The translations under genes were made by a program, and so were the position numbers. Shown in pieces: positions 1 to 18,684 of a stretch of DNA of 64,000 nucleotides. Within the stretch, counting starts at the first letter, position 1, and the number at the start of each line of letters is the position of its first letter. The DNA is from a virus, in the IMG/VR virus record IMGVR_UViG_3300002026_000069, positions 36,161 to 100,160 of that record. One strand, written 5' to 3'. The notes below the pieces were generated by a model. It was not told the DNA's origin. It saw only the letters and a program-made list of their open reading frames with translations, and made no database searches.

Positions 1-1521
1 AATTGGGAAACTGAGTTAATCGAACACATAAACAGTGATCTTCCATATCTAGCTAAGATCCCGTATGAGATCCAGATTAAGCAGAAGGATAAAGAACTAG
101 GCTATGCTCTAGGTTCTATTGTTCTAAAAATCGAAGGTATTCAAGCTGCCATTCCGATCATTATTAAGAAGAGAAAACTTCAAGCTCTTGATGTTCTCAT
201 GGAAGGCGAAGAGAACGCCACTCCCTTAACTGAAGACACTCTTATGTCTTTAGTTCAAAAGAAGCAATCACTTGGCAAGTTAACAGATACGAAGAACACT
301 GGACTTGTTGATAGAGTTACAGCCGGTGCTTCAGATGAATCTGGACATATGCCACCGAATTATGGCAAGTATACATTTGCTTCGGTAAATAACGCGGATC
401 CTAAAGCCATTAAGGAATATGAGGATCTTCTTAAAGAAGCTGCCTTCATAGCTGGATTCAAGGCTAAGAATCTTAATGGTCCACAATTATCTTTTAAGCC
501 AAGATTAGTTACAAAAACTGGTGGAATTAAGAAGGTAGCTGGTCACATCATTAAAGAACCCAAGTCCATTCTAAGCTTATTAGAAAAGACAGGCTCTGCT
601 CTCGTTGTTGATAAGAATAACGAACTCCATAAGGGTTTATTCATCGACAATGTAAGAACCCTTGATGGTGAGAAGGTCGCTCAGAAACTCTTCATTACCG
701 ATAAGGCTTATGCCTATCAGGAGAAGATCGCTGGACGCGCTGGATCATTTAAGGTTAGCGGCGAAACGGATTACTCAATTAACGATGAAGTTGTGTTCGT
801 TATTAACGGTGTAGCTACTGAGCCTGTTAAAATAGCAATGAAAGCTAATGGCGAGAAGCTCGCTTGTGTTAATCATTTTGGTCGTAGATTTAATGCTTAT
901 CTAACGAATGTTGATAGCATTGTAAAGACTGCTTCAGGATACTTAATCCCGAAGAAAGCCGCCATTATCAAGCTTGGCAAGCGTATCGTTGCAAGAACTT
1001 CTGATGAGGCAATTCTCAAGACTGCTCAAGCTAAGCTTGGAAATAAGACCTATATCACTTGCGCTCCTGAATCCTATTCATTCAGCAACGAGAAGGTTGG
1101 AACATTCAATAATCTTCCTCATCTGAGAATGATGACTCTGATGAATGGATTCTATGAGAATGGCGTTGAACTATTAGAACAAGCTGAAAAGACCGGATCA
1201 GCGGTTATTTCAGCAATAGATATGGGTGTAGAGAAGAAGGCTTACAAAGTTCCTAAAGTCCTTTCTATTACCGATTCAGTGAAGCTCGCGGCCAATCTCG
1301 CTGATCCTGATTCAGTAGATGCAGTGCTATCACTAGGATTTATTAACGAAGATAACGTTGCTGATTTCGTAGAGATGGTTCCTCAGTTTGAGGAAGTTGT
1401 TAACCATCTTGCTAAGATCCTTATCTCTGTAAGACTTGGCATGGCAGGCGATCAAAATGTTATTAAGCATGCCATGAAGTACCTTCAGAGAGTTATCGAC
1501 AATCTAAAGGCATTAAGATGA
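1..1521 (+). CDS. Head-module protein (5' partial; frame is open from base 1), rich in K-x-A motifs
   Basis: Frame has no stop upstream of the 199 ATG; many KEA/KVA/KTA/KKA/KLA motifs; ATGA-coupled to the next gene. Confidence 0.6.
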   Translation, partial: NWETELIEHINSDLPYLAKIPYEIQIKQKDKELGYALGSIVLKIEGIQAAIPIIIKKRKLQALDVLMEGEENATPLTEDTLMSLVQKKQSLGKLTDTKNTGLVDRVTAGASDESGHMPPNYGKYTFASVNNADPKAIKEYEDLLKEAAFIAGFKAKNLNGPQLSFKPRLVTKTGGIKKVAGHIIKEPKSILSLLEKTGSALVVDKNNELHKGLFIDNVRTLDGEKVAQKLFITDKAYAYQEKIAGRAGSFKVSGETDYSINDEVVFVINGVATEPVKIAMKANGEKLACVNHFGRRFNAYLTNVDSIVKTASGYLIPKKAAIIKLGKRIVARTSDEAILKTAQAKLGNKTYITCAPESYSFSNEKVGTFNNLPHLRMMTLMNGFYENGVELLEQAEKTGSAVISAIDMGVEKKAYKVPKVLSITDSVKLAANLADPDSVDAVLSLGFINEDNVADFVEMVPQFEEVVNHLAKILISVRLGMAGDQNVIKHAMKYLQRVIDNLKALR

Positions 1522-2462
1522 GAAGATCTGAACAGATTCTTAACACCATAGATGAATTAAGTGCAGCAACAAGAAAAGGCGAATTAAGACGCCTACTAGC
1601 TCACGTTGGCGTGGGCGGCGTTGGCGGTGGCTATGTAGGCCATAAAGTCGATCTTACTGAAAATAATCCTGACTTAAAATTAAGTAAGGGTCAGAGAAAG
1701 CTTCAATCCATACTTAAGGGTGCAATAGGTGGCGGAACGCTTGGAGTTGCAACTGGAGCATTGCACGCTGCTCATTTTAGTGATTCTCAAAATAAAGTAA
1801 AAAATAAGTTATTTGGTGAGTTTCATAAAGCTCGCAACGCAGAAGAAGCCACTGAATGGGCTGAAAGAGAAAAGAGGCGTGCGGATAGAGCAAGGGAATG
1901 GGCTGAGAGAGATAGAAAAAGTCAGCAAGAATACGAAGAGGCTAAAAAGAAATACGACGACACTTTTGATTCTTTCAGAAAAAAGTATAGTGGATCTGGA
2001 TCTGGATCTGGACAACAAAGACGTAGCTACGAAGACTTCGCTGGATCAGCTAGATCATCTTATAGATCTAGACAGAAATCCATTCCAGATATCTTTAAGG
2101 AAAGAACTGGAGGCGAGATAAAAACTAAGGCTGATCTCAAGGCTTGGTATAGAAGGAAAGCTAAAGAGCATCATCCAGATAGACATATGCAGGCTCCTGA
2201 ATTAGTTCGTAAAGAACACGAAGCTAAGTTCAAGGCTGCTGAAACGCTCCATTCAGAACTTCAAAAGCATCCAGACTTTGATAAGTTTGCCGCTTTGAAG
2301 TTAGCTGTTTTAAAAGTTGAAGGCTTATACGCTGATCCTGAATACCAAAAGGTTCAGAGAAAGTATAATGATGGTAATTTAGAAGATAAGTTCCAATATC
2401 ACGCCTATAAGCGTGCATTAGATAGAGCTACCTATAATTACCATGCTAAAACACACCACTAA
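1518..2462 (+). CDS. Glycine-zipper membrane protein with C-terminal DnaJ (J) domain
   Basis: N-terminal GVGGVGGGYVG...GAIGGGTLGVATG, then coiled coil, then KAWYRRKAKEHHPDRH...EAKFK J-domain with HPD at 2172-2180. Confidence 0.75.
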   Translation: MRRSEQILNTIDELSAATRKGELRRLLAHVGVGGVGGGYVGHKVDLTENNPDLKLSKGQRKLQSILKGAIGGGTLGVATGALHAAHFSDSQNKVKNKLFGEFHKARNAEEATEWAEREKRRADRAREWAERDRKSQQEYEEAKKKYDDTFDSFRKKYSGSGSGSGQQRRSYEDFAGSARSSYRSRQKSIPDIFKERTGGEIKTKADLKAWYRRKAKEHHPDRHMQAPELVRKEHEAKFKAAETLHSELQKHPDFDKFAALKLAVLKVEGLYADPEYQKVQRKYNDGNLEDKFQYHAYKRALDRATYNYHAKTHH

Positions 2463-2577
2463 GCTTGCGGCTATTAAAGCTGCCATTAAGAAGTATAAAC
2501 TCACCGCTTTACCTACCTATGGTGGAACAAATCTATCTATGGTTAAGAGCGACTTACCAAGGAATGCATATCCATGA
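2443..2577 (+). CDS. Small 44-aa peptide (not in ORF track)
   Basis: MLKHTTKLAAIKAAIKKYK...; fills the gap exactly, ATGA overlap with 2574; KLAAI also starts the 34386 protein. Confidence 0.5.
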   Translation: MLKHTTKLAAIKAAIKKYKLTALPTYGGTNLSMVKSDLPRNAYP

Positions 2578-2882
2578 ATCTAGAACTTATTGAAGATGCA
2601 ATTGAGAAGATTGCCGATGGTGCCGCTATGGCTAGGAAGGCTTTAGGATCGGCTAAATTAATTAAACCTGACACTCAACTCTCTAAGGGTCTTATTACAC
2701 AAGGAGAGCATAGGAGTAAAATTAAAACTATGCTTTCATCTGCAAGACTACAGAGAGATAGTAAAGCTGGTAAATTAGCTCCTTTGGGTTCTGGTCATAA
2801 AGCGTACCCAGGTGTATATGAAGCTCCAATTAAATATGAACACGATGTATCAAGACCTGGATTCTTAAAAGTAATTAAATGA
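2574..2882 (+). CDS. Tagged small basic protein (putative head cargo)
   Basis: Starts MNLELIEDAIEKIA, a tag shared with 5159 and 12666. Confidence 0.6.
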   Translation: MNLELIEDAIEKIADGAAMARKALGSAKLIKPDTQLSKGLITQGEHRSKIKTMLSSARLQRDSKAGKLAPLGSGHKAYPGVYEAPIKYEHDVSRPGFLKVIK

Positions 2883-4273
2883 AACCCATCCCAGGCTTCC
2901 CTGGCTATCACATCTCTGAGGATGGTAAAATTACCAATCCTAAAGGGAAGTTGTTAACCAGAAAGGATGCCTGGGAAGGTTATCCAAGAGCGCGTCTAAA
3001 GAACGAAGAAGGTAAGTTCGTTAATAGAAAGATTCATCGTCTTGTAGCCTTGGCACATCTTGGCGTTAACGACGGTGAGATTCGTCATAAAGATAACAAC
3101 AGAGCTAATGTAGCCGTTCATAATCTTGAGTGGGGAGATAGATTCTCAAACGCTCAAGATAGATTAGCTCGCGGGTCATATCATCTAAAGACAAAGCTTG
3201 TGGGTGGGAAAAGCCTACTTGTCTTAGGTGACGATAAGTACCTAGATCCTGAAGCTAAGAAAGTTTATAAGGTTACTGATCATCCTATTGGCGAAGAAGG
3301 TGTGATACCTGTAACATCATTAGAGAAGGTTGCATATTATCGTAAATATGCTCTCATTGATTTAGATACAGGAAAAATTCAAAGTGGATTAAATACATAT
3401 GTTAATTCTGAAGAGTTTAGAAAAAGGCATATAGAGAAGAAGGCTTTCCTACGTCGTTTTTTAAAACCAAATGTAGCTGAACATGCATTTGATGCCGTAT
3501 CCAGCGTTCAACTGCCTGGAGGTATGATTGGCAATGCAGTGACATCTGCAAAGCATGCTTATCAAGGCATTAAACCACATTTAGGTGGACCTGAAACATT
3601 ACTTACTAAGAAGAAGATACTTAAGCCATCACCTGTATTTAAGGGACTTAACATCCCGTCTGTTCAGCACGGAGTTTACACAAAGAGAGGACTAAAGGAA
3701 GTAACTGCTTCTAAGCTATATCCAGAAGCTCATGAGTTACTATTTAATAGATTTACTCCTATAGAGCTATTAAAGGGTATTAAGAATAATCGTAAGTTTG
3801 ACGGTAATTCCATTGATTATATTAAAGCCAACTTCCATCCAAGGAAGCTTGTAGATAAAGCTAACGCTGGTCATGAAGAGGCAAGAAAACTCGTAAAAGA
3901 GTTTGACTATGCAAGATCTGGCTTTGTTAAGAAAGCCGAATGGACTTCCAAGAAGAACGCTGATAGTCACGCATTAAAGCATGCAGATGAAATGGGATTA
4001 ACAAAAGAGCAATATATTGCTCTGGCTAAATCAGCATTGAATGATAAGAAGTCTTTAATTAGCATTAGGGGTGATATACATAAGTCTCGTCATGGTAAGA
4101 ATATTTTAGTTCATAAAGATGGAAAAGTAATTACTTATTACTCAAAAGTGGCTTACATTCGTAAAATTAAGAAGGGACTAGAGAGAGGTATTGATAACTT
4201 CCAAGATTGGGGTTATCATCAGGATGTCATTCAAACACATCAAGATATCAAAGAGAAGCGAAAGAAGAAATAG
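2879..4273 (+). CDS. NUMOD4/HNH endonuclease fused to K-x-A-delimited modules, including a toxin-like RNase module
   Basis: IPGFPGYHISEDG, HRLVALA, HKDNNRANVAVHNLEW; then EKVA, EKKA, KKA and KVA boundaries; HALKHADEMG..EQY..A module. Confidence 0.7.
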   Translation: MKPIPGFPGYHISEDGKITNPKGKLLTRKDAWEGYPRARLKNEEGKFVNRKIHRLVALAHLGVNDGEIRHKDNNRANVAVHNLEWGDRFSNAQDRLARGSYHLKTKLVGGKSLLVLGDDKYLDPEAKKVYKVTDHPIGEEGVIPVTSLEKVAYYRKYALIDLDTGKIQSGLNTYVNSEEFRKRHIEKKAFLRRFLKPNVAEHAFDAVSSVQLPGGMIGNAVTSAKHAYQGIKPHLGGPETLLTKKKILKPSPVFKGLNIPSVQHGVYTKRGLKEVTASKLYPEAHELLFNRFTPIELLKGIKNNRKFDGNSIDYIKANFHPRKLVDKANAGHEEARKLVKEFDYARSGFVKKAEWTSKKNADSHALKHADEMGLTKEQYIALAKSALNDKKSLISIRGDIHKSRHGKNILVHKDGKVITYYSKVAYIRKIKKGLERGIDNFQDWGYHQDVIQTHQDIKEKRKKK

Positions 4274-4274
4274 A

Positions 4275-5158: not shown

Positions 5159-5626
5159 ATGTCATTAGAACTTATTGAGCAAGCAATCGAAAAAGTAGCA
5201 TTCTTACCCGCTGGGTCAGGTGCGGTACTCAAGGGAGCCTTCTCAAAGGGTTCTACCTGGAAGGGCATCGGAACTAGAGCCGCAATCGGCGCTGGTGTCG
5301 GAGGCGTAGGAAACGTACTTCTTGGCGATAAAGATCAATCAGTCATGGAACGCGCTACAAAGGGCGCTGTTGGTGGTGGATTGGTTGGTGGACTCTATGG
5401 AGCGGGTCGTGCTGCTCATGGAGCCATTAGGGGTGATGCCGTAGGTAAGGTTCGTAGTGCAGTGAGACAAAATAGATTCGTGAATAATGATCAAATTCAC
5501 GGAACTATGGGAAATAGAAACGCCGATCAATTAGCTAGATATCAATCTGACTTAAAGGCTCATAAAGCTACGATTAGAGCCAAGATGAATCCAAGTGCAA
5601 CTCCAGCACCAGCCGCCGCTCCTTAA
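5159..5626 (+). CDS. Tagged glycine-zipper protein (putative head cargo)
   Basis: MSLELIEQAIEKVA|FLP..., AAIGAGVGGVG...KGAVGGGLVGGLYG. Confidence 0.65.
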   Translation: MSLELIEQAIEKVAFLPAGSGAVLKGAFSKGSTWKGIGTRAAIGAGVGGVGNVLLGDKDQSVMERATKGAVGGGLVGGLYGAGRAAHGAIRGDAVGKVRSAVRQNRFVNNDQIHGTMGNRNADQLARYQSDLKAHKATIRAKMNPSATPAPAAAP

Positions 5627-5771: not shown

Positions 5772-7307
5772 GTGAAGCCATCTACCCTTGCTCAAAAGAT
5801 GTTGTCCCTTAAGGGTGGACCTTTAGACCTGAGAGGCAGACCATATCTCAAAGATGTATATGATTCAGATGCACAGAGAGTTCTCTTAAAGTTTGGCCGT
5901 CAGTCTGAAAAGTCTACTACTTTAAGTGCTAAAATAACATTAAATACAGCGTGCATCCCATACTTTAATACGCTGTTCGTTTCGCCTTCAGCTTCTCAGA
6001 CGAAAGACTTTAGTAATGATCGTCTAAATCAGTTCATGAAGAATAGTGATTATATTGTAGATAATCTATTCGACCAAACATGTACTGATAGAGTAGATCA
6101 AAAGTCTCTTTTAAATGGTTCGAATGTATATCTGAGATATGCATTCCATAACGCTGACAGAACCCGTGGTATATCTGCTGATCAGGTAGTTCTTGATGAG
6201 CTTCAAGATATTCGAACTGATAATATTTCGGTTATTGAAGAATCTGCGTCTCACTCTGAGAGAGGTTTAAAGGGTCATCCATATAAGTCTTTCATCTTCG
6301 CAGGCACTCCTAAGACTACGAATAACTCAATGGAGTTCTTTTGGCGTAGATCCTCAATGCGTGAGTGGGGTATTAAATGCGAAGGTTGCGGACATTGGGC
6401 ATTAGAACTCTCTACAAAGAACATTGGTAAAGAGTATCTTATATGCGAGAAATGCGGACATAGACTATATCCTCAAACTGGACGCTGGATTATCACGAAT
6501 CCAGGTGCAGCTATTGAAGGATATCATATTTGTCAGTTAGCCGTTCCTTGGCTTGATTGGCAAAAAGACATTCTATTCAAATTAAATACCTATCCTCAGA
6601 ATCGTTTCTATAACGAGGTTCTCGGGCTATCATACGATAGCGGTTCTAAGCCGTTAACCATGGCTCAACTTCGTCAATGCTGTAATCCTGATCGTAAGGA
6701 TTGGTGGAAGCATGATGAAGGATATATACCAAGACCTTTGTTTGCTGGGATAGATTGGGCTTTAACAGCAGAGAAGTCCTTTACTATCCTAACCATAGGC
6801 GCTTGGCTTCCATTCCCTGAGAAGTTTGTTATTCTCTATCAGAAGAAGTATGAGGCTAATCTAGACCTACTCCAGCAAATTGAAGATATTAAGCTCGTTT
6901 GCGACCAATACGGCGTAGATCTTATTGGAGCGGATTGGGGTGCTGGTGTTCATAGTAACTTAAAGCTTATTGAACACTTCGGTTCCGATAGGGTTGCTCA
7001 GTATTATAACTCTGGATCTCAGAAGAACCGCATTCAGTGGAATGATAAGCGTCAGATGTTTACGATTAGCAGAACAACGGTAATGACAGATTTGTTTAAC
7101 TATATACAAAAGTCTCGTATTGAATGGCCAGCATATGAAGTCTGTCAGGGATTCCTAACTGACTTCCTGAATGAAGATATCGAATACAATAAAGATGGTG
7201 TATTGTATTACGATCACAATCCAGATAGTCCTGATGATGCTATTCACTCGACTATGTATTGTATGTTAGCTGGAGAACTATTCTATACGAATAGGGGTAA
7301 TAGCTAA
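5772..7307 (+). CDS. terL: Terminase large subunit (GpA-like)
   Basis: GRQSEKST Walker A-like, VVLDE Walker B, GTP motif, two CxxC, AGIDW nuclease Asp, PDDAIHS. Confidence 0.9.
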   Translation: MKPSTLAQKMLSLKGGPLDLRGRPYLKDVYDSDAQRVLLKFGRQSEKSTTLSAKITLNTACIPYFNTLFVSPSASQTKDFSNDRLNQFMKNSDYIVDNLFDQTCTDRVDQKSLLNGSNVYLRYAFHNADRTRGISADQVVLDELQDIRTDNISVIEESASHSERGLKGHPYKSFIFAGTPKTTNNSMEFFWRRSSMREWGIKCEGCGHWALELSTKNIGKEYLICEKCGHRLYPQTGRWIITNPGAAIEGYHICQLAVPWLDWQKDILFKLNTYPQNRFYNEVLGLSYDSGSKPLTMAQLRQCCNPDRKDWWKHDEGYIPRPLFAGIDWALTAEKSFTILTIGAWLPFPEKFVILYQKKYEANLDLLQQIEDIKLVCDQYGVDLIGADWGAGVHSNLKLIEHFGSDRVAQYYNSGSQKNRIQWNDKRQMFTISRTTVMTDLFNYIQKSRIEWPAYEVCQGFLTDFLNEDIEYNKDGVLYYDHNPDSPDDAIHSTMYCMLAGELFYTNRGNS

Positions 7308-7331
7308 AGAAAGGCGCTCATGCGCCATGGT

Positions 7332-7556
7332 TCAATCAACCATTCCTTCATTGGACTGAAGGAATTCAATCTCAGCCTGAGATACCTCGACATGTTGATT
7401 GTCGATCATCTCTTCAGAGATACTAGGATCTCCTTCTTCCTGCTTCTTGAGCATATCAAGCAACTTCTTCGATTCCATCACATAGGCATTCCACTTTGGT
7501 GTGGTTGCATCTGTGAGATCAACCCCGATGATATCGGGGCATTGGATTTCAGACAT
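7332..7556 (-). CDS. Antisense cassette hypothetical protein
   Basis: AAGGAG Shine-Dalgarno (SD), GGTATAAT -10 at 7577-7584, downstream hairpin. Confidence 0.6.
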   Translation of the reverse strand: MSEIQCPDIIGVDLTDATTPKWNAYVMESKKLLDMLKKQEEGDPSISEEMIDNQHVEVSQAEIEFLQSNEGMVD

Positions 7557-7603
7557 GGTTATGTCTCCTTATTAGTATTATACCTCATAGCTAAAAAAGA
7601 CAC

Positions 7604-7915
7604 TCATGGGAGTGTCCTAGCCTTCAATATGGCTTCGAATGTCTTTTGGTATTCAGACTTATTCTTGTCTTCTTCCTCTTCCCACTTCATATCTTTGAAT
7701 GCTTCTTTTATCAAATAATACTGGCATATAGCATTCGCTATACCCAAAGCGATACTAGCAACAGCAAATCCGGTCAAGAACCTATCTGCCGCTACATTGG
7801 ATTCATAAGCATTATGAATGCTATTGAATTCATTTAAAGTTGATATAGACTTGTTTATTTGAATTCCACGTAGCGTTGTATCAAGACGCATTGGAATCAT
7901 TGGTTGATATGTCAT
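7604..7915 (-). CDS. Antisense cassette single-TM protein (likely start 7915)
   Basis: FLTGFAVASIALGIANAIC; GGTATAAC -10 ends 6 nt before ATG 7915. Confidence 0.55.
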   Translation of the reverse strand: MTYQPMIPMRLDTTLRGIQINKSISTLNEFNSIHNAYESNVAADRFLTGFAVASIALGIANAICQYYLIKEAFKDMKWEEEEDKNKSEYQKTFEAILKARTLP

Positions 7916-8006
7916 ATGGATGTTATACCTAAAAAACATCAACCGTGCCTCAGTATTGCTACTGAGGTCACTTTAAACCTTTCGGTGGTTGATGTTCTCC
8001 TTGGCC

Positions 8007-8222: not shown

Positions 8223-8264
8223 GTTAATGCCCTCCTTACTATTCTTATACCTAAAAACAACCCC

Positions 8265-10030: not shown

Positions 10031-10180
10031 GCTGATATCCTCCTTCAAGGACGAGAACCCATGATCTTCTGGATCACTTTCTCTAAATATATTATACCAT
10101 TTGGAGGGTCCTTTTTCCCTTAAAGTGTCCCTGTGCAGGGACATATTGATTTTAGGCTTCTTATCTATACTATGTTTCAT

Positions 10181-11005
10181 ATGTTCGATAGCGACTCTTG
10201 CAGGACTTGGGCTAAGGAAGCGTCTGATGCTTATCTAGCTGATAGCACCCCTCTAGGGGACACTATCGCTGGAATAGCTAAAAAGAACTCCTTAAACCCC
10301 AATCAGATACAAAGAGTCGTGGAATTGACTAATTCCATCACTCATGCTAGACTATTCCAGAAGGAAAAGGATAAGACCTTTACCTTCCCACTGGCTAAAT
10401 TAGACGATATTCTAGCTAAAACTAAGGAAACTACCGTGAAAGTAGCTGAAGCATACGTTTCAATGCCCGATATTCAACGTCCAGTGGAATCCACTAAGAT
10501 AGCTGAGTTATTTGATAGCCCTGAAGTCTTGGATATTAATAAGATAGCCACTCTAAAGAAGGCTCAAATCTACATTGAGAAGATGGAAAAGGCTGCTGAA
10601 TGCCTAAATGACGCTCTAATTCTAGCCGATCTTAATGCCGTCCAGTATCTCAAGGATGCCAAAACGGTCATTAAACAGATGCTTTTAGACTCATATCATA
10701 TGGAAGACCTCTTTGCGGCTATGATTGGGGCTATGCCAGATAAGAAAATGGAGCTTTTAAGCTTATTTAGCTCTATCTGCAAGGAGCTTTCAGAAGAAGG
10801 GGTTAAGATTGCTTCCCTTTCAGTAGATCCAAACTATATATCTTCTCTATTAAAGACTCAGAATATCAGAGTTGTCAATGGTCAGCACCCTCTTTACATG
10901 AATGTAAAGGGATATTTCGACCAAGTTGATGAAGTTGCAGCCAAAAAGAATAGCATCGAATGGCTTGGAAGCAAGATCAACGAGCTAAAACATGCAATTA
11001 AATGA
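10181..11005 (+). CDS. Head-module (scaffold/core-like) protein; likely start 10181
   Basis: TTGATT-N16-TACTAT at 10146-10173 ends 7 nt before the ATG; many K-x-A motifs. Confidence 0.55.
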   Translation: MFDSDSCRTWAKEASDAYLADSTPLGDTIAGIAKKNSLNPNQIQRVVELTNSITHARLFQKEKDKTFTFPLAKLDDILAKTKETTVKVAEAYVSMPDIQRPVESTKIAELFDSPEVLDINKIATLKKAQIYIEKMEKAAECLNDALILADLNAVQYLKDAKTVIKQMLLDSYHMEDLFAAMIGAMPDKKMELLSLFSSICKELSEEGVKIASLSVDPNYISSLLKTQNIRVVNGQHPLYMNVKGYFDQVDEVAAKKNSIEWLGSKINELKHAIK

Positions 11006-11297
11006 GCATTCTATTAACGGCATGCTGAAATTAGCAGGTATATACTCCAGTGTTATGACTGGCGGATATAATCTAGCTAAGAAAGGGATTTCTTCTTTAA
11101 AGCCTTTAGTCTCCAAAGAAGTCTCTCCAGGTGTCAGACGCCTCTCATTAAAGAGAATGGCTATGACAGGAGCAGGTCTTTATGGTGCCAAGAAGCTAAC
11201 AGATCAAGTCTTAGAAAATCAACGTAACCTTTCAAGAGACTATATGGATGATATTCATCCGTATCGTCAATCAGACACACTAAGGATGGCAAGATGA
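10992..11297 (+). CDS. Small basic protein, MLKLA|G..., putative head cargo
   Basis: KLA after a short leader; GAGLYGA segment. Confidence 0.5.
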   Translation: MQLNEHSINGMLKLAGIYSSVMTGGYNLAKKGISSLKPLVSKEVSPGVRRLSLKRMAMTGAGLYGAKKLTDQVLENQRNLSRDYMDDIHPYRQSDTLRMAR

Positions 11298-11937
11298 ACA
11301 CTCAATTATACAATGAGTTACTAGAAGCTAAGGCAAATGGTACTTTGGGTACTGTTCTCCTTGAGAAATTCGCCTCTCTAAACATTAAGTCTGAAGATGA
11401 AGTTCGGCATTTATTTGATTGCACGAATGAAAAGCTTGCATGGAAGGGTGGTGGCGGTGGTCCAGCACCAACACCTAGTAAATCAACCACTTTAGGCAAG
11501 GTAATTCTAGGCTTATCATTAGCTGGAATTGCATCAGTTCCTATTGGAGCCATGATTTCTAAGGCAAACCAGAAGAAGTCCACATTTGATAAGATCAAAG
11601 CTTCTAATCCTGCATTAGCTCAGGATGCCAAGACTAAGGATCATTACGACATGCTATGGCATGAGCTTCTAATCCTGCATTAGCTCAGGATGCCAAGACT
11701 AAGGATCATTACGACATGCTATGGCATGTTGCTCCTAATCTTGCTGGAAATCATGTTATTGCCGCTTCTGTTCTTGAACAGCTTAAGGCTTATGACATGA
11801 TTGATCACCAGATGATCGCTAAGCTTGTTGAAGCCGATAAGAACATGGCAGAGAGCAAGTCGAAGAGCGGTATGATTCAGAATGCCAGTAACCTCTCAAC
11901 AATCGGAAAGAACATTTCCGATATGGCGAACAAGTAA
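11294..11937 (+). CDS. Single TM-containing protein broken by a 65-bp tandem duplication
   Basis: Removing one repeat copy fuses 11294-11683 and 11716-11937. Confidence 0.65.
11599..11728. repeat. Perfect 65-bp tandem duplication
   Basis: 11599-11663 = 11664-11728. Confidence 0.95.
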
Positions 11938-12480
11938 ATGGACGGCAAAAAGATTGTAGAGCAATATCTTAAGATTGCTCCATATCTTGGTGCTGCTGGA
12001 ACCGGCGCTGCCATTGGTGGCGCTGTTTCCGATGATCGTAAGAAGGGCGCTATGAAAGGCGCTCTTATTGGACTTGGTTCGTTGGTTGGTGGAAGATTGG
12101 CTGCAAAAGGTGGATCTTCTATTGCTAATAGGTTCCTAGGTAAGGATAAATTGAAATTTGCAAACGAGTTCCGTGAACTAGAAAAGAAAATTGGAACGGA
12201 TGCAGCTATTCATAAAGTAAATATAGACGCTTTAGTTGCAAACGGAAAAGTAGATGCTGCTAATACATACATATCTAAACTTCAAACTGAAGGTTTAGGC
12301 GCAGCATATGCATCTCTTGGCGAGAATCATAAATATATTCCAGAAATTCCAAAGGATATGTTTGCAAAGCTTCTTTCTAAAGAAAGCGGAATTATCGGTG
12401 GCGCAGCAACTATTGGTTCTTCTGCTGGTTTAGCTGGAACCGCATACGCATTAAGAAATGGTAATAGTTCTAAAAAATAA
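11938..12480 (+). CDS. Glycine-zipper protein (putative head cargo)
   Basis: YLKIA|PYLGAAGTGAAIGG...KGALIGLGSLVGG; second zipper at the C-terminus. Confidence 0.6.
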   Translation: MDGKKIVEQYLKIAPYLGAAGTGAAIGGAVSDDRKKGAMKGALIGLGSLVGGRLAAKGGSSIANRFLGKDKLKFANEFRELEKKIGTDAAIHKVNIDALVANGKVDAANTYISKLQTEGLGAAYASLGENHKYIPEIPKDMFAKLLSKESGIIGGAATIGSSAGLAGTAYALRNGNSSKK

Positions 12481-12685
12481 GAACATCGTAGGTTACTACG
12501 ATGGAATGATTCATGCGGACAATGAGCATGACATTCGCTTAATAAATACATGTCTTAATGTAAATCTTGACAAAGCAGACGAATATCATAAGCTAAAAGA
12601 TAGATTACACGCCCCTTACTTCTGTAAGCGTGGAACAACTAACCAATCCTTTAGGATAAAGCAAAATGTCATTAAATCTCATTGA
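12458..12685 (+). CDS. Hypothetical protein
   Basis: Overlaps both neighbouring genes in the operon. Confidence 0.45.
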   Translation: MVIVLKNKNIVGYYDGMIHADNEHDIRLINTCLNVNLDKADEYHKLKDRLHAPYFCKRGTTNQSFRIKQNVIKSH

Positions 12686-13037
12686 AGATGCAATTGAGAA
12701 AATAGCTTTATTATCAGCCGCAAACACAGCAGCACGATTTGGATTAATCGGTGGCGCTGTTGGCGCTTTTAGAAAGAAAGATAAAGACGAGTCTCGTCTT
12801 CATTCCATTCTTAGAAGTGCTGGAACTGGCGCTGCCGTTGGAGCAGGCGGAAACATAGCTGCAAGAGGCTTAGCTAAGGCTGTTAAATTTAGCCCTGGCA
12901 AAGCTGAAGTAGCAAAGCTCGTTGGAGATAAGAAGACTTATAACAAAGAAATGCTTAAAGCATTGGCTGTACTTGGTGGTGGAACCGCTGGTAGTATTGG
13001 TGCTTATCACCTTGCCAAGAGAAAAGAAAATAAGTAA
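12666..13037 (+). CDS. Tagged glycine-zipper protein (putative head cargo)
   Basis: MSLNLIEDAIEKIA|LL...; GLIGGAVG, GTGAAVGAGG, GGGTAGSIGA. Confidence 0.65.
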   Translation: MSLNLIEDAIEKIALLSAANTAARFGLIGGAVGAFRKKDKDESRLHSILRSAGTGAAVGAGGNIAARGLAKAVKFSPGKAEVAKLVGDKKTYNKEMLKALAVLGGGTAGSIGAYHLAKRKENK

Positions 13038-14881
13038 TGTTTAAAGCCATCGACATCGGACCATTGCTGGATGACGGCGAATTAGCCGTTAAACTCATGC
13101 CCGTTGGCGATGAGGAAAAGACAGCTTCCGTACTTGGAAAGCATATTCCTGATGAGATCGCTCTCTTCGCTAAAGCGGCTAAGTCTTCTGAAGACTGTGT
13201 TTGGCTTCATGTTATCGCCATGACGGCTGGAGACTTTTATGGTCCCAATCGTAATGGCGATTTCTTCTATGAAGCTGATCTTCTTGGAATGCAAGATCAA
13301 GAAGAAGCTAATAAGAATATTGGCGAATATACTGGAAAGCCACTTCAACGCTATAAGACATTCTTACAGGCTTCATTCTATCATCATCATAAGAATAAGC
13401 CAGATCTAGGGCATCCTCGCTTTGGTCGTGTTGTAGTTGTAGCTTACAACCACATCATGCATCGTGTTGAGCTTGTTCTACAAGTATTCAGAATTACTAA
13501 GAAGATTGGTGATATCACCTATCTTGGTGATCCTGATACTTGCGGAAAGGCTATGAGAGGCGAACAAATCGCTTTCTCCATGGGATGCAAGGTTCCTGGT
13601 GACTATTGCTCAATTACTGGTGTATGGAATAAGACGGTTGCTAACTATGGATTGCACTTAAAGACCATGATGGGTCGTATAATGCCTGATGGAAGGCGTG
13701 TATACGCAATTAATAGAAAACCAAGATTCTTCGATATCTCAAAGGTTCTTATTCCCGCAGACCCACTTGGGCTATCCATTACTAAAGTAGCTTCAGTAAT
13801 CATTGGATCTGCTCAGAAAGCTCTGGATTACGGCATGGAAGATAACGAGAAGCTTTCAATCTTAAAGAAGTCTGAAATAAAGAAAATAATTCCAGATGGC
13901 AAACTGATTGGTGAATTAGCCGATCAGCATGAGATGCCTGGATTAGAATATACTGATGATGATCTTCCTAGTAATGTATTAGATAGTCTAGGCAACCTAT
14001 CTTTAGGCAAGGCTCTTACTAACCTATTAGCTTCAGGCATGCTTGCTTCACCAAGAGAAGTTGGCACTATCATTACTATTCGTATTCAACGTTCTCCTAA
14101 CTGGATGAAAGAGACTCCTGATATTGATTGGAATGGTGGAGTGGATTCTGATGTTCAGAAAGAACTCGCTAAGCATGCTGCAAGTCGTTCTTTCTTTGGG
14201 CATCTTCCATTAAATAGAATGGAGAAGCTGGCTAATGTTGAAGAGAAGGCTGAAAAGTCTCTTCCAGATAAGATTTACGAGAAGTTTAACAAGCAACTTC
14301 CAGTTGGTGTGACGATGGGTGCATTGATTGCATCTATATATACGTTGTATCGTGCCAACATTCGTAGCGGAACATTAGAAAGTTTCTTTAAACTAATCGA
14401 TAAGAATCCATATATTCTTCCTGCTGTCATTGGTGGTGGAACTTTGGCAAGTTCAACCATATCAGCAGCTATGGAGAAGAAAGCTGATATGCACAAGCAT
14501 ATCAATAAACTTCTTTTAGCTACTGCTATTCCATATGTTGGATCTGCCTATCTGACTCAAAGAGAGAAGGAAGGCAAGCAACTTGGTGCTGTCTCAAGAT
14601 TCATTAAAGACAATCCAGGTGCTTTGGCTATCGGCAGCAACATAGCTGCTTTTGGTGGAGCAAAAGCCCTAAAGGACAAACTGACTTCAAAAGTTGCTCA
14701 CTTGAAAAAGTGCGCGGGCTTAGATAAGATGGATGTGATAGATAACTTTGTCGTGCAGCCAATGACATCACTTTCGGGAAGCATTCCGCATTCGATGGTT
14801 GGTGGTTCGATAGATAGTTATGTCCTAAACAAACTTCTCAATCGTAAGAGAAAAACCCTTCCTTCCTCAACGGAGAAATAA
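13037..14881 (+). CDS. Putative prohead maturation protease with K-x-A-delimited C-terminal hydrophobic domains
   Basis: NRNGDFF, YHHH, FSMGC..D.CS, FFDIS.V..PAD resemble HK97/herpes-fold phage serine proteases; upstream of scaffold and capsid genes. Confidence 0.65.
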   Translation: MFKAIDIGPLLDDGELAVKLMPVGDEEKTASVLGKHIPDEIALFAKAAKSSEDCVWLHVIAMTAGDFYGPNRNGDFFYEADLLGMQDQEEANKNIGEYTGKPLQRYKTFLQASFYHHHKNKPDLGHPRFGRVVVVAYNHIMHRVELVLQVFRITKKIGDITYLGDPDTCGKAMRGEQIAFSMGCKVPGDYCSITGVWNKTVANYGLHLKTMMGRIMPDGRRVYAINRKPRFFDISKVLIPADPLGLSITKVASVIIGSAQKALDYGMEDNEKLSILKKSEIKKIIPDGKLIGELADQHEMPGLEYTDDDLPSNVLDSLGNLSLGKALTNLLASGMLASPREVGTIITIRIQRSPNWMKETPDIDWNGGVDSDVQKELAKHAASRSFFGHLPLNRMEKLANVEEKAEKSLPDKIYEKFNKQLPVGVTMGALIASIYTLYRANIRSGTLESFFKLIDKNPYILPAVIGGGTLASSTISAAMEKKADMHKHINKLLLATAIPYVGSAYLTQREKEGKQLGAVSRFIKDNPGALAIGSNIAAFGGAKALKDKLTSKVAHLKKCAGLDKMDVIDNFVVQPMTSLSGSIPHSMVGGSIDSYVLNKLLNRKRKTLPSSTEK

Positions 14882-14882
14882 A

Positions 14883-15446
14883 ATGCAGATCGAAGATTTA
14901 CTCGCACAGCTTGCTGCTGGTAGCGAAAAAACTGGCACTGAGGCTGAAAAGACCGCTGCTGCCGCATCAACCACCCTTCCTGAAGGTATTTCTGCTGAAG
15001 TCTTAGCTATGGCTAAGGCTCTCTCAGAAGACAAGGAAGCTCTCGCTGCTCTTCAGAGCATGAGCGAGGACTCAGAGAAGACTGCTGAAGCTGAGAAGCT
15101 TGCAGAAGAGCTTGAGTTCCAAGGCCGTCTGTTTGCTCGCGGTTTAATCGCTGAGCAGACCAAGATTGCCTATCTTTCAGACCAGATCGACGAAGATGCC
15201 GTTATTAAGACTGCCGAAGCACTTCACATGACTCTCGATGAGATTATGGGCGAGAAGATCGCTGATGCTCATGAGCAGGCTTACACCGCTGCCCAGAATA
15301 ATTCTGGCGCTGGTCATGTCGAAGTTGCTCAGAACGCTCATGAGCGTCCTGTTGCAAAGGCAGAAGAACTCAAGGGCTTAGCCGCAGTTGCGAATGCTCT
15401 TAAGAAGGTCAAAGTCAACAAAACCGATCAGCCCGTTAACGGCTAA
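14883..15446 (+). CDS. Scaffold-like acidic protein
   Basis: Ala/Glu-rich; EKTG, EKTA x2, EKLA, KIA, KTA, EKIA. Confidence 0.6.
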   Translation: MQIEDLLAQLAAGSEKTGTEAEKTAAAASTTLPEGISAEVLAMAKALSEDKEALAALQSMSEDSEKTAEAEKLAEELEFQGRLFARGLIAEQTKIAYLSDQIDEDAVIKTAEALHMTLDEIMGEKIADAHEQAYTAAQNNSGAGHVEVAQNAHERPVAKAEELKGLAAVANALKKVKVNKTDQPVNG

Positions 15447-15479
15447 TCATAAACAATCCATACCTACAAGGAAAATAAC

Positions 15480-15896
15480 ATGGATCTCGCAGAATACTAC
15501 GAAGAAGTCACCAAGACCGCTGGCCTGAAAGAGGAAGCCGACGTTAGCGAAGAGAAGGTAGCTGCCATCGTTGCAGTTTCCGAACAATTCGATATCGACG
15601 GAATCGCTTTCGAAAACGAAGACGAGAAGATTGCTGCCGCAGTCGCTATCGTTGAAGGATTCGAGTCAGTTGTTGAGGAATCAGAGAAGGACGCAGGCGT
15701 TGGCGAAATGTACAACAAGGTCAAGGGTCATCTCGCTGCTGGATATGCAAAGGTGAAGGAAAAGGCTGGAAAGGCTTACGCCGCCACCAAGGAACACCTA
15801 AAGACGCATAAGGGCAAGTATTACGCTGGCGCTGGCGGTGCTGCCGCTGGTGGAGTTGCTGGATACGTCGCTGGCCGCAGAAGCAAGAGCAAGTAA
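15480..15896 (+). CDS. Acidic propeptide plus basic glycine-zipper C-terminal peptide
   Basis: KTA, EKVA, EKIA, EKDA|GVGEM...; ends GAGGAAAGGVAGYVAGRRSKSK. Confidence 0.6.
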   Translation: MDLAEYYEEVTKTAGLKEEADVSEEKVAAIVAVSEQFDIDGIAFENEDEKIAAAVAIVEGFESVVEESEKDAGVGEMYNKVKGHLAAGYAKVKEKAGKAYAATKEHLKTHKGKYYAGAGGAAAGGVAGYVAGRRSKSK

Positions 15897-15917
15897 GCTT
15901 TTAAAAGCTTACTATAC

Positions 15918-15946
15918 GAAAACCCCGCTCTTGTAGCGGGGTTTTT
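15918..15946 (+). terminator. Rho-independent terminator
   Basis: AAAACCCCGCT-loop-AGCGGGGTTTTT. Confidence 0.8.
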
Positions 15947-15998
15947 CGTTTCGCTTGTCATTTATAAGTAAAATCATACACTATCTACGGAGTAATAT

Positions 15999-16232
15999 AT
16001 GAACCTTTCAGTAGAAGATATTGTTAAAGAAGCCGTAGCTAAGGGAAAGAGCTTCGTTCCAGTTCCTAAGCATTCAGATGAATCTGAGCCTGCTAAGTTA
16101 GCTTCAGCCTTAGAAGCTCTTGCCGAAGATGCAGATGAAGAAGCTCAGGCTTATGCTAAGCATACAGAAGAAAAAAACGAAAAGTTAGCTTCAATTAAAG
16201 AATTCGTGGATACACTACACGAAGTTTTATGA
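15999..16232 (+). CDS. Small acidic head-module protein
   Basis: KEA, KLA x2; TTGTCA-N16-TACACT promoter upstream. Confidence 0.55.
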   Translation: MNLSVEDIVKEAVAKGKSFVPVPKHSDESEPAKLASALEALAEDADEEAQAYAKHTEEKNEKLASIKEFVDTLHEVL

Positions 16233-17071
16233 TAGAGCAGAGGAATAAATTTAGAGAGGCTGAATTTGCCCGTCAAGGAAGCGGATCTCTAACAGTAGAT
16301 GCCGCTAAGGGTCTTACTGGTTTAGCTGGTGGAGCCGTTGGTGCTGCGAGAGGTAAGGGATTTTCTGAATCAAGAAAGAAAACCTCTGAAGCAGTTGGAA
16401 AAGGTCTTTGGCATGGATTTGGAAAGCATGTAGATTATGCAGATAGATACTTAGGTGGAGCAGCTTCTAAGATTCCAATTCTTGGAAGAATGTTTAAATC
16501 AAAAGAGAGATTTGAACACGCTTTAACACCTGAAATTAAAGCTAAGTTAGGAAAAGAAGTCCTTAATCCAGCGGAACGTCATGCAGTTACCGCTGCAACA
16601 GAAGGTGTGAATGTTCGTAGACTTTCAACGCCAATTAAAGGTGTTGCTAAGGTTGCCGTTCCAATTGCCGCATCTATGTATATAGGTGATAAGATGATGA
16701 AATATAAAGAACGAAAAGCAGCAGAGCAACAACAAAAGAACGCTGAATTAAGCGTTGTTGTTCAAAAATCAGTCCTCTTGAAAACAGCAGGGGTTCTCCG
16801 TAATCTAGATCAGGAGAAAAAAGCAGCCCTAGCTGAACTTGCAGAGACTACCAAACTCGCTACTGCTCAGAAGGCAGTTTTATCTTTAGTCAGAGAAGGT
16901 TTAATAGACCTTGATGACATAGACGAAAAGATAGCAGAGTTAGTTGAGCATCCAGATAGAGCAGAATCATTCTTCAATGTTCCAAAGACTTCAAACTTCG
17001 GAACTCTTTCGACTTCAACAACCTCTTCTTCGAATCCCCTAGAAGACTTCCTACTCAACGGAGAAAAATAA
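16229..17071 (+). CDS. Head-module protein (glycine-zipper N-half, scaffold-like C-half)
   Basis: GLAGGAVGAA; KNA, KTA, KKA, KLA, KIA. Confidence 0.5.
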   Translation: MIEQRNKFREAEFARQGSGSLTVDAAKGLTGLAGGAVGAARGKGFSESRKKTSEAVGKGLWHGFGKHVDYADRYLGGAASKIPILGRMFKSKERFEHALTPEIKAKLGKEVLNPAERHAVTAATEGVNVRRLSTPIKGVAKVAVPIAASMYIGDKMMKYKERKAAEQQQKNAELSVVVQKSVLLKTAGVLRNLDQEKKAALAELAETTKLATAQKAVLSLVREGLIDLDDIDEKIAELVEHPDRAESFFNVPKTSNFGTLSTSTTSSSNPLEDFLLNGEK

Positions 17072-17072
17072 G

Positions 17073-17498
17073 ATGTCACTAGAAATGCTTACCCGCACAG
17101 AAGACATTCGCCGCAATGTCCTGAACAATAGCGGCAACGCTGTTGTTCGTTCAGGCTCATGGGTTGCCCGTGATGCCAATGGCAATGCCAAAACCCCTTC
17201 AGCAGGTGAAGTTTCCGCTGGCGTTGCTCAGCTTGTCATTCTCGGCAACGAGAATGCTCGTCCTGATAGCATCGGCAGCGAAACAGTCACCGTCCAGTAT
17301 GGCCAGAATCGTTTCGCTGTAACAAGCGAAGGATTCGTTGATACAAGCGTAGTAGTTGGTTGCGAGCTTCAGATCGTCAATACACCATCAGGTGTAGGTG
17401 AGATTGGTTACAAGCTCGGATTCAAGGCTGCTGGCGCGACTGTTGCCATCTGCGAAGAGATCTCAGGCGGAAGACTCGTCTTCCGTACCCTCCGCTAA
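17073..17498 (+). CDS. Capsid decoration/cement protein
   Basis: 141-aa beta-rich protein directly before the capsid gene; strongly biased codons. Confidence 0.55.
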   Translation: MSLEMLTRTEDIRRNVLNNSGNAVVRSGSWVARDANGNAKTPSAGEVSAGVAQLVILGNENARPDSIGSETVTVQYGQNRFAVTSEGFVDTSVVVGCELQIVNTPSGVGEIGYKLGFKAAGATVAICEEISGGRLVFRTLR

Positions 17499-17532
17499 AC
17501 TTATATACTAAAAATATAAAGGACAACATTCA

Positions 17533-18684
17533 ATGAGCGACAATTCAGCAATCCTAAATGGCCTCTTCGTAGATGCCGTTTCAACATCAGACGGGCTTGA
17601 AAAGCTCGCTGAAGTCGGTGGAGCTTACATCCAGAAGATCCTGCGTGAGACTTCGTTCGCACGCCAGATTCTTCCTCCGGTCAATGTAACTCGTACCGAT
17701 GTTACCCGTAGCGTTGATCACGATGGATTCGTCAAGATCATCGACATTGAGCCTGATTCGAAGGCTATGGCGATGAACTTCCTTGGCGAGCCAGATGGCC
17801 GCTACATCACTGGCGCTCGTTACGCCGTTCCTTTCTTCCGCGTTGCTTCGGAAGACTTCAGCAAGGATGAAACCGAACTGATGGCCTATGACTACCCGAT
17901 CACAAGAGTGATTGAGGAAAATAGCGTCAAGGATATTCAGGAGATCGAAGATAAGGTCTTCATGAAGTATGTTGACTCAGGCATTCGTTCGAATGCTATG
18001 TTCGTCAACTATGTCGGCACCAGCAAGAATCTCAGCAAGGCAGCCGTTAAGACTCTGATCAATCTGATCGAAGCCAAGCGTCTGAAGTGCGAAGTTCTTC
18101 TGATGGCAACGACCACCTGGAACGACGTTCTGGAGTTCGACTACAGCGTTCTTGGCTCGGATCTGATCTCAAAGGTAACTGTTGAAGGATACACCTACAA
18201 CACGTTCCTTGGCCGCAAGGTGATCACTTCGATCAAGGAATCGATGTTCTTCAAGAACGCCAAGTTCCAGAATGCAGGAACCGTAACGGTAGTTGCTTCG
18301 ACATCGGCTGTCGTAACAACCAATATCTTCAACGGAACCTTCGACACTGCCATCATCGGCATTGGCGACACCGTTGTAGTCTCGGGTGCTGGTGCCAACA
18401 CTGGCAAGACCGGAACCGTGGTTTCAGTCTCAGCAACCCAGCTTGTTGTTACTGCCACGCTTGCCAACGAAGCTGCCGCTGAAACCCTGACCATCACGGC
18501 TAAGAGCCTGAAGACGATCTACGCCTTCACCGCCCCACGCTTCCTTGGTCACTTCTTCATCCTGAACCAGACGAAGTTCGTGATCAAGAAGGATATGAAC
18601 ATCATCACCTTCCGCGCTTGGGAAGATGTTGCTATCGGTATCGGCAACCTGAATGCCGCCGCTGGCGTAACTCTCGACTCATAA
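17533..18684 (+). CDS. Major capsid protein
   Basis: Position after protease/scaffold/decoration genes, highly biased codons, strong terminator; LRETSFARQILP; HK97-fold-like C-terminal AWEDVAIGIGN. Confidence 0.8.
   Translation: MSDNSAILNGLFVDAVSTSDGLEKLAEVGGAYIQKILRETSFARQILPPVNVTRTDVTRSVDHDGFVKIIDIEPDSKAMAMNFLGEPDGRYITGARYAVPFFRVASEDFSKDETELMAYDYPITRVIEENSVKDIQEIEDKVFMKYVDSGIRSNAMFVNYVGTSKNLSKAAVKTLINLIEAKRLKCEVLLMATTTWNDVLEFDYSVLGSDLISKVTVEGYTYNTFLGRKVITSIKESMFFKNAKFQNAGTVTVVASTSAVVTTNIFNGTFDTAIIGIGDTVVVSGAGANTGKTGTVVSVSATQLVVTATLANEAAAETLTITAKSLKTIYAFTAPRFLGHFFILNQTKFVIKKDMNIITFRAWEDVAIGIGNLNAAAGVTLDS

Follow-up and report, generated by a model that had tools for sequence, protein, structure and literature searches.

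We report a predicted capsid-maturation protease, 13037, and a short motif, K-x-A, that recurs in the head proteins encoded around it, in a 64,000-nucleotide stretch of DNA (hereafter the window) spanning positions 36161-100160 of one 100,160-bp virus record in IMG/VR, IMGVR_UViG_3300002026_000069. Genes of the window are designated by their start positions, and the head genes described below all lie on its plus strand. The K-x-A motif is specific to head genes and is most likely the cutting and capsid-loading signal of the adjoining herpesvirus/T4-type protease. Taken as a whole, our observations are best explained if 13037 is a capsid-maturation serine protease that acts on K-x-A sites across the head proteins, an interpretation that we regard as moderately probable.

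Enrichment of K-x-A in the head module

A preceding sequence-only reading of the window had listed a number of (E)K-x-A motifs in head proteins and proposed that the 13037 protein cuts after them. All of the listed motifs are present: 14883 has EKTG, two copies of EKTA, EKLA, KIA, KTA and EKIA; 15480 has KTA, EKVA, EKIA and EKDA; the capsid protein has its N-terminal site; and 13037 itself has EKTA at residues 27-30, KVA at 250-252 and 552-554, EKLA at 396-399 and EKKA at 480-483. When expected counts are taken from per-protein shuffles that keep each protein's composition, the head module (plus strand, 1-18684) shows 86 K-x-A against 53.8+/-6.8 expected (z 4.75), and the longer form E-K-x-A stands out more sharply, with 26 occurrences against 3.8+/-2.0 (z 11). 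The same reading had judged by eye that the tail, minus-strand and terminase genes are not dense in the motif, and the counts agree: the tail genes (plus strand, 18809-34688) have 21 K-x-A against 17.7 expected and one E-K-x-A against 0.9, the minus-strand genes have 28 against 31.6 and none against 2.3, and the large terminase subunit (5772..7307; phrog_675, E 7e-73) has no K-x-A at all and thereby furnishes a negative control inside the head module.

The excess belongs to this particular motif. In the head module no enrichment over shuffles is seen for A-x-K, E-x-A, KA, K-x-G or K-x-S, which were taken as controls, and among 1200 patterns of the forms XY, XxY and XxxY, K-x-A ranks first there (z 5.0). 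When the full 100 kb of the record are counted, 27 E-K-x-A fall within 5892 head residues and six within the remaining 25194 (odds ratio 19, p 1e-14). An N-terminal K-x-A, with its Lys at residues 8-30, is found in 15 of 27 head open reading frames (ORFs) as opposed to 6.0+/-2.1 in shuffled sequences; the corresponding figures for non-head genes are 13 of 125 and 12.1.

One might suppose that the excess is an artefact of the Ala/Lys/Glu-rich helical composition of the proteins or of a few duplicated segments; the head proteins are indeed rich in A, K and E, and three leaders described below are clear paralogs. We hold this to be extremely improbable, since the shuffles preserve composition, the control patterns are flat, E-K-x-A still occurs 23 times against about 3.8 expected once the three paralogous leaders are removed, and the excess recurs in 132 mutually unrelated proteins of related phages. 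Composition or helical periodicity as a cause was thus rejected by the shuffles, the 1200-pattern ranking, the control patterns and the unrelated-protein set.

The motif follows the protease gene across related phages

In 79 related IMG/VR loci, the ratio of observed to expected K-x-A in plus-strand ORFs is 1.9-2.9 from -3 to +4 kb of the protease start and about 0.8-1.0 at 8-10 kb from it. Five control patterns are flat or depleted around the protease gene in the same loci; R-x-A is not enriched and K-x-G is depleted. After removal of all ORFs similar to window proteins and retention of one representative per similarity cluster, 132 neighbor proteins remained, in which K-x-A occurs 423 times against 242 expected (z 13.9), E-K-x-A 118 times against 18 (z 22) and [LMFIV]-x-K-x-A 244 times against 58 (z 24.6), as opposed to a z of -0.9 for K-x-A in genes more than 6.5 kb from the protease. 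Therefore, the motif arose many times in proteins that share only their place beside the protease gene, as would be expected from a recognition code but not from common descent.

Among isolated phages, homologous head genes are found only in Salmonella phage Arash, the Vibrio phages D69, D181 and D148, and Bacillus phage G; a megablast search with 13037-18684 returned no match to any isolated phage. In both Arash and phage G the proteins neighboring the protease homolog bear the same motif. We found no paper that describes a K-x-A code or the specificity of this protease family, and the papers on Arash, on D69, D181 and D148, and on phage G describe no cleavage motif or leader.

13037 as a member of the assemblin/T4 gp21 fold class

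The 614-aa precursor encoded by 13037 (13037..14881), itself unannotated, is assigned here as a prohead protease from its AlphaFold2 model, its fold match and the phrog_18299 match of its homologs. Its protease domain (about 31-252) is preceded by a propeptide (residues 1-30), and behind the domain come 360 residues of C-terminal extension, which have more K-x-A at 379, 397, 481, 552 and 558. The AlphaFold2 model has a mean predicted local distance difference test (pLDDT) score of 85, rising above 90 over residues 40-250 and falling below 50 at 25-33 and beyond about 256.

Structural comparison of this model bears out the proposal of a protease fold, in that its best Protein Data Bank (PDB) matches are the herpesvirus assemblins and T4 gp21. 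In an exhaustive structural search the varicella-zoster virus (VZV) protease (1vzv) gave Z 9.8 with a root-mean-square deviation (rmsd) of 2.8 over 115 aligned residues and T4 gp21 (5jbl) Z 9.5-9.7 with rmsd 3.1 over 132; next after VZV and T4 came the proteases of cytomegalovirus and Kaposi's sarcoma-associated herpesvirus (KSHV), and the pseudorabies protease (4v08) reached Z 9.1. The first 25 rows of a second structural search are all herpesvirus or T4 capsid proteases, followed by unrelated MCE domains at Z <= 5.8. Foldseek alone returned only weak rows, headed by the pseudorabies protease (E 0.058, probability 0.80). At the level of the predicted model, then, an assemblin/T4 gp21-type fold of 13037 is shown.

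An alignment of 60 homologs with 30-66% identity has N71, D75, H118, S181, M182, D233 and S235 as its invariant positions. H118 (13388..13390) is the candidate catalytic histidine and S181 (13577..13579), in an S-M-G motif whose Gly is kept in 55 of 60, the candidate serine. The order of H118 and S181 and their spacing of 63 residues are like those of T4 gp21 and the herpesvirus proteases, and we infer that these two residues have a catalytic role.

The family is large. Residues 1-300 of 13037 retrieve 2240 clusters at 50% identity (E <= 0.001), almost wholly from uncultured sources and with no name or Pfam domain. Pfam matches none of the 60 homologs, 44 of which do match phrog_18299, a head maturation protease family. 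The homologs in isolated phages (Arash gp222, Vibrio D69, D181 and D148, and phage G gp19) are 27-35% identical, and the last of these has been named a head maturation protease (PMC12484599).

Two further features of the family deserve mention. First, the protease domain carries an insert of the form Cys-x2-Cys ... Cys-x-His (C191 in 60 of 60 homologs, C194 in 58, C205 in 58 and H207 in 50), which is probably a zinc ribbon. The window copy (13607-13657, residues 191-207) has T194 and G205, and therefore seems to have lost the metal site. Second, some homologs of 800-950 aa (P0036, P0223 and P0248) have PF14528 or PF18823 matches inside the protease, which suggests mobile insertions in the protease gene of some lineages.

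The first of these features bears on the alternative that the motif is cut by some other enzyme, either of the host or encoded in a missing part of the phage genome; 13037 would then have a structural or scaffolding role, and its protease-like fold would be inactive. The linear record is estimated to be 55% complete, the window copy lacks two of the four zinc-ribbon ligands, and 13037 itself has no profile match. Set against this, H118, S181, N71, D75 and D233 are intact in the window copy, the density of the motif peaks around the protease gene in the 79 loci, and the presence of the motif at the boundaries of the protease family's own domain fits self-processing. Moreover, searches of the 100-kb record for S77, S78 and ClpP gave no match; as nearly half of the genome lies beyond this record, the single protease of the sequence-only reading holds provisionally, for the sequenced part. 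We consider the involvement of another enzyme very unlikely.

Sites bracketing the protease domain and the predicted scissile bond

The protease domain of 13037 is bracketed by two K-x-A sites. The first, K28-T-A30 (13118..13126), lies in a linker modeled with low confidence and is the predicted N-terminal self-processing site; its Lys is present in 60 of 60 homologs and its Ala in 59, and 44 of the 60 have S, A or G next in line. The second, K250-V-A252 (13784..13792), is where the finished domain is predicted to be released: it is on the last strand of the folded domain, the confidence of the 13037 model falls right behind it, and its positions are occupied by K in 57, by V, L or I in 60 and by A in 57 of 60 homologs, with S after A252 in 32 and Ser, Ala or Gly there in most. 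The phage G protein gp19, only 27% identical to 13037, has the same bracketing arrangement.

A weight matrix built from the protease flanking sites of distant relatives picked out 13 genome sites scoring >=10, as against three expected, with nine of the 13 in the head module; this test is positive but modest, as the flanking sites also bear fold-specific context. A predicted complex between the protease domain and the N-terminal 40 residues of the leader protein 12666 scored 0.01 and counts neither way.

From 2520 sites we derived the consensus acidic-acidic-(L/M/F/I)-(E/V/T)-K-(T/V/Q)-A-(S/E/A); the enrichment is 3.3-3.7-fold for L/M at -2, 3.8-fold for E at -1 and 3.5-fold for S directly behind the Ala. 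Pro is underrepresented between -2 and +4 of the motif and makes up just 1.6% of the residues following it family-wide. The alternation of hydrophobic residue, Lys and Ala would suit the P5, P3 and P1 positions of a bound strand. In the better known systems, the T4 head protease reads P3 and P1 of an L/I-x-E code and cuts after P1 (PMC9026906), the SPN3US protease does the same with A-x-E (PMC10052503), and the herpesvirus proteases cut after Ala, for example YLQA-T and VQA-S (PMC4498786). As the related folds cut after P1, the herpesvirus enzymes cut after Ala, and Ser tends to follow the motif, we predict with moderate confidence that the bond cut is the one after the Ala of K-x-A.

It is also conceivable that the protease cuts at another bond, for instance before or after the Lys, which would shift the predicted mature ends by one to three residues. 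Of all residues in the motif, Lys is conserved best, and two sites are followed by Pro. That said, T4, SPN3US and the herpesviruses all cut after P1, the Ala is as invariant as the Lys at the protease's own sites, and the 3.5-fold preference for Ser is for the position after Ala; hence, such a displaced bond appears quite unlikely to us.

Predicted substrates: the capsid protein and multi-site scaffold-like proteins

The major capsid protein (17533..18684, 383 aa; phrog_2522, major head protein) is 34% identical to that of Arash. Cleavage at its K24-L-A26 site (GLEKLA; 17602-17610), the predicted capsid maturation site, would remove an acidic propeptide of 26 residues. The mature protein would then begin at Glu27. 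A K-x-A occupies the same N-terminal alignment column in about 40 of 45 distinct homologs, and in the Arash capsid protein, gp226, the predicted cut follows V-K-E-A at residues 26-29.

Between the protease and capsid genes are several proteins with multiple sites. These include the acidic scaffold/core-like protein 14883 (14883..15446, 187 aa), with seven K-x-A and an EKTG that would yield pieces of 6-60 residues; the 138-aa protein 15480 (15480..15896), with four acidic pieces each ending in K-x-A ahead of a 66-residue basic (+11) Gly-rich piece; the acidic 77-aa protein 15999 (15999..16232), with three K-x-A, the Lys of the first being residue 10; and the 280-aa protein 16229 (16229..17071), with eight K-x-A in its acidic C-terminal part behind a basic N-terminal half. 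The homolog of 14883 in a 58%-identical relative, L001, has nine K-x-A sites, some of them within inserted sequence, and 16229 has homologs in both L001 and another relative, L022.

Comparable proteins are encoded further upstream. The conserved head protein 10133 (10133..11005, 290 aa) has nine K-x-A against 2.8 expected and homologs in 46 related loci and in Arash, where the homolog, gp220, is reported in virions. The first gene of the window (1..1521) specifies the last 506 of 537 residues of a head-module protein with 14 K-x-A against 5.3 expected; it starts 92 nt before the window, and the part of the protein restored by its true start places an EKVA at residues 19-22. Outside the window, by the portal gene, is a 308-aa protein (genome 1268-2194; L084:1268-2191) with 13 K-x-A against 3.9 expected, spaced about 10-30 residues apart, which is probably another multi-site scaffold/core protein of the same system. 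Both the true start of the 537-aa gene and the 308-aa gene fall outside the range covered by the sequence-only reading. Together with 10133, the first gene product and the 308-aa protein, the scaffold-like proteins 14883, 15480 (N-terminal part), 15999 and 16229 (in part) have 3-14 sites each and are largely acidic; they would be shredded, as T4 gp22 and the SPN3US propeptides are.

Two more proteins near the start of the window bear several sites. The 314-aa protein 1518 (1518..2462) has a Gly-rich segment and five K-x-A, including DKFA and a KLA near its C-terminus; its match to the J-domain is weak and, at 19.9 bits (E 7.9e-4), does not reach the Pfam DnaJ cut-off of 27.8. The 464-aa protein 2879 (2879..4273) is an HNH domain at residues 1-132 (phrog_59, E 2e-24; Pfam HNH_3; HNH/NUMOD4) fused in frame to a 330-residue part with ten K-x-A against 4.3 expected. 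Within the latter, a module of about 72 residues (residues 352-425, window 3932-4153) lies between K-K-A and K-V-A. Protein-atlas comparisons gave this module weak leads to colicin D, colicin E5 and Ntox35 clusters, at 0.78-0.84 and hence below the 0.9 mark; it has no homologs of similar length, and its single-sequence fold (pLDDT 51) is unusable.

Leader-bearing proteins and the nature of the cargo

Three small proteins with otherwise unrelated bodies begin with a common leader of the form M-x-L-x-L-I-E-(D/Q)-A-I-E-K-(I/V)-A. In 2574 (2574..2882) the leader MNLELIEDAIEKIA is followed by an 88-residue basic (+10) protein; in 5159 (5159..5626) MSLELIEQAIEKVA is followed by a basic Gly-rich protein; and in 12666 (12666..13037) the 14-residue MSLNLIEDAIEKIA is followed by a 109-residue basic (+13) Gly-rich protein. 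The DNA similarity among these three genes is confined to the leader codons. In L001, the gene syntenic to 12666 has the same type of leader before a different, acidic body, and other relatives have leaders such as MxNKYLEKIAS. The leaders end in E-K-(I/V)-A, which is the motif that flanks the protease domain and is repeated in the scaffold-like proteins.

Similar configurations recur in other small proteins. The 101-aa protein 10992 (10992..11297) has K-L-A at residues 13-15 and then an 86-residue basic (+8) piece, with K-T-A at residues 10-12 in its L001 homolog; the 129-aa protein 11294 (11294..11683) has EKFA at 24-27 and EKLA at 46-49, followed by a piece with a hydrophobic segment at 64-91; and the Gly-rich basic 180-aa protein 11938 (11938..12480) has K-I-A at 12-14 followed by Pro, which makes this site doubtful since Pro is rare just after the motif.

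The sequence-only reading had supposed that the proteins thus released are small membrane-active and enzymatic effectors, carried in the capsid and injected with the DNA. Its protease and its cleavage code are computationally well supported, but this characterization of the cargo is not: Pfam finds no match in the small head proteins, 11294 alone among them has a hydrophobic segment of membrane-spanning length, and the mature pieces are strongly basic. The post-leader pieces have charges of +8 to +13 over 86-128 residues and are Gly/Ala-rich behind acidic leaders, so that the predicted mature proteins resemble the T4 internal proteins more than membrane proteins. By analogy with T4 and SPN3US, and given that Arash gp213, gp221 and gp224 were found in a virion preparation, we infer that the products may be packaged and injected; that preparation contained 116 of the 272 phage proteins, with many non-structural enzymes among them.

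The leaders also raise the possibility that K-x-A is a docking motif that stays uncut, an amphipathic element that recruits proteins into the procapsid through binding to the scaffold, to the inside of the capsid or to the extension of the protease. The leaders do look like amphipathic helices (LIEDAIEKIA), the capsid motif is in a conserved N-terminal segment, several motif-bearing proteins of Arash were recovered with full coverage, and the targeting and processing residues of the T4 leader are separable (PMC9026906). Against this, the motif stands exactly at the order-to-disorder boundaries of the protease domain in 57-60 of 60 homologs, acidic scaffold-like proteins have 4-13 copies of it, like the multiply cut T4 gp22 and SPN3US propeptides, and Ser is preferred after the Ala and Pro depleted, as is typical of a scissile bond. 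On balance, we deem uncut docking unlikely.

Proposed maturation pathway and its implications

The proposal that 13037 cuts at K-x-A implies several roles for it. The protease would read a strand composed of a hydrophobic residue (P5), Glu, Val or Thr (P4), Lys (P3), Thr, Val or another residue (P2) and Ala (P1), and would most likely cut after the Ala, before Ser, Ala, Gly or Glu. Inside the procapsid it would free itself at K28-x-A30 and K250-x-A252 and trim 26 residues from the major capsid protein. In addition, 14883, the N-terminal part of 15480, 15999, part of 16229, the first gene product and 10133 would be shredded, with the small peptides leaving the shell. Acidic leaders of 12-15 residues would also be cut from the basic Gly-rich proteins 2574, 5159, 10992 and 12666, among others, which would remain within the head. 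A second function is probable for the 14-residue leader common to three of them, namely to direct its proteins to the core during assembly, much as the T4 capsid-targeting sequence (CTS) does.

Several observations weigh against this interpretation. With respect to the protease, the fold-search Z of 9.5-9.8 is only moderately above the best values of 7-8 that are usual for unmatched models; the catalytic assignment of H118 and S181 comes from invariance and order and not from superposition; the window protein matches no PHROG or Pfam family at E 0.001; alignment of the protease family profile with T4 gp21 by hhalign gave a probability of 0.15, that is, no sequence-level link; and neither phmmer nor a family profile search found a useful match to any chain among the PDB sequences. 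With respect to the sites, a Pro after the motif (K-I-A-P in both 11938 and phage G gp19) would disfavor a cut after the Ala, and structural constraints may partly account for the conservation of the Lys and Ala at the capsid N-terminus and the domain boundaries. The capsid protein of phage G is devoid of K-x-A, and therefore capsid processing is not universal in the family. Last, the motif-bearing proteins gp221, gp223 and gp224 of Arash are reported at 100% coverage in the virion preparation, which was the broad one with 116 of the 272 proteins; at face value, this means that their propeptide regions are still detected, which fits poorly with complete removal.

A broader synthesis joins cutting and loading: K-x-A would be a universal address-and-cut code of a very large and almost wholly uncultured clade of big phages, in which a portable leader of 12-15 residues with L-E-K-x-A at its end suffices to load any protein into the head, and different lineages inject a changing cargo. 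We offer this only as a tentative possibility. Under such a synthesis, the cargo would consist of basic, glycine-zipper and enzyme-like proteins, here possibly including the J-domain protein and the nuclease-like module; if correct, the T4 CTS would no longer be the sole programmable tag for capsid loading, and the second, independent one would use chemistry like that of herpesviruses.

The cut codes of head proteases are known in detail only for a few phage groups, namely T4, phiKZ/SPN3US and HK97. The specificity predicted here, with Lys at P3 and Ala at P1, would be like that of herpesvirus assemblin rather than the Glu of T4, and it provides a map of sites for about twenty head proteins. 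If it holds, head genes could be better annotated in thousands of metagenomic phages and capsid cargo could be read from sequence alone; it would also supply a new short tag for loading phage heads and tie capsid maturation in phages more closely to that in herpesviruses.

Genomic context

The record is linear, with a CheckV completeness estimate of 55%, and its closest relatives are contigs of 130-186 kb; judged by the relatives, a complete genome would measure about 180 kb. Head and tail genes occupy the plus strand from 1 to about 34.7 kb of the window, and the minus strand has many small genes. Scattered singly among these (41396-62570, minus strand), with no single cluster, are 13 tRNA genes: Arg-tct, Lys-ttt, Ser-tga, Ile-tat, Glu-ttc, Leu-taa, Thr-tgt, Leu-tag, Val-tac, Ala-tgc, Gly-tcc, Asn-gtt and Gln-ttg.

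The order of 13037, the acidic scaffold-like genes and the capsid gene 17533 is the same in L001, Arash and phage G. Upstream of the window are the portal gene (genome 3631-5508), whose product resembles phage G gp14 and has three K-x-A against 3.9 expected, and, among virion genes, a single 1859-aa ORF for a fused beta-beta' RNA polymerase (genome 22019-27598; L085:2019-7595). The latter matches both beta-type and beta'-type PHROGs (phrog_25354, E 7.5e-100; phrog_24349, E 1.5e-73; and others), and has no excess of K-x-A (eight against 12.9 expected) and no leader. As K-x-A is not enriched in either the RNA polymerase or the portal, we do not count them as substrates.

Between the terminase and the next head gene (7320-8600), the plus-strand ORFs are of low complexity and look non-coding, and minus-strand ORFs are present at 7604-7942 and 8265-8585; in L001 the same gap is filled by about 4.8 kb of minus-strand genes. 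Genes for homing endonucleases are numerous in the head module, at 2879-4273 of the window and at genome 2885-3634 and 35419-36030. Two ORFs, one adjoining the portal and one just before the first head gene, have N-termini that by eye are GIY-YIG-like, and a similar-looking ORF precedes the terminase in L001.

Comparison with known systems

Systems of this kind, in which a capsid protease with a P3-x-P1 code goes together with multi-site scaffold proteins and with internal proteins tagged by leaders, are already known. One parallel is that of T4, where gp21 acts on the CTS of IPI-III and Alt (PMC9026906). The two share the fold class of the head protease, the three-residue P3-x-P1 code, the many sites in scaffold/core proteins, the loss (here predicted) of an N-terminal piece from the capsid protein, and the short, motif-ending leaders on small basic proteins that differ between relatives. 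They differ in the code (K-x-A here, L/I-x-E in T4), in the lack of detectable sequence similarity to gp21 or of a Pfam S77 match, in the 360-residue C-terminal extension and family-wide Cys/His insert of the protease described here, and in the length of the capsid propeptide (a predicted 26 residues against 65 in T4); moreover, the present system is known from computation alone.

Herpesvirus pUL26 (PMC4498786) provides the best fold match of 13037. Its layout is likewise that of a protease domain at the N-terminus, separated by a self-cleavage site from a long C-terminal portion that serves in assembly and has more sites; the predicted release site K250-V-A252 would be the parallel of the herpesvirus R-site (PMC4498786). 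It also has Ala at P1 with Ser or Thr at P1'. The Lys at P3 and the hydrophobic P5 are, however, specific to the 13037 family, the host is a bacterium, and where the herpesvirus triad is Ser-His-His, two candidate catalytic residues, H118 and S181, are assigned in 13037.

The phages phiKZ (gp175) and SPN3US (gp245) (PMC10052503) are also large phages with virion-linked multisubunit RNA polymerase genes, N-terminal propeptides on many head proteins, several cuts per propeptide and a preference for Ser at P1'. Their motif is A/S/G-x-E, their proteases are relatives of T4 gp21 by sequence, and their cleavage sites have been proven by mass spectrometry, whereas those proposed here are predicted from sequence. 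True homologs of 13037 are Arash gp222, which was found in virions (PMC10585845), the proteins of Vibrio phages D69, D181 and D148, and phage G gp19, all encoded at the same place in the head module. What is new relative to all these systems is the K-x-A specificity, a large protease family without Pfam membership that is linked to the known proteases by fold only, and a code that holds across that family.

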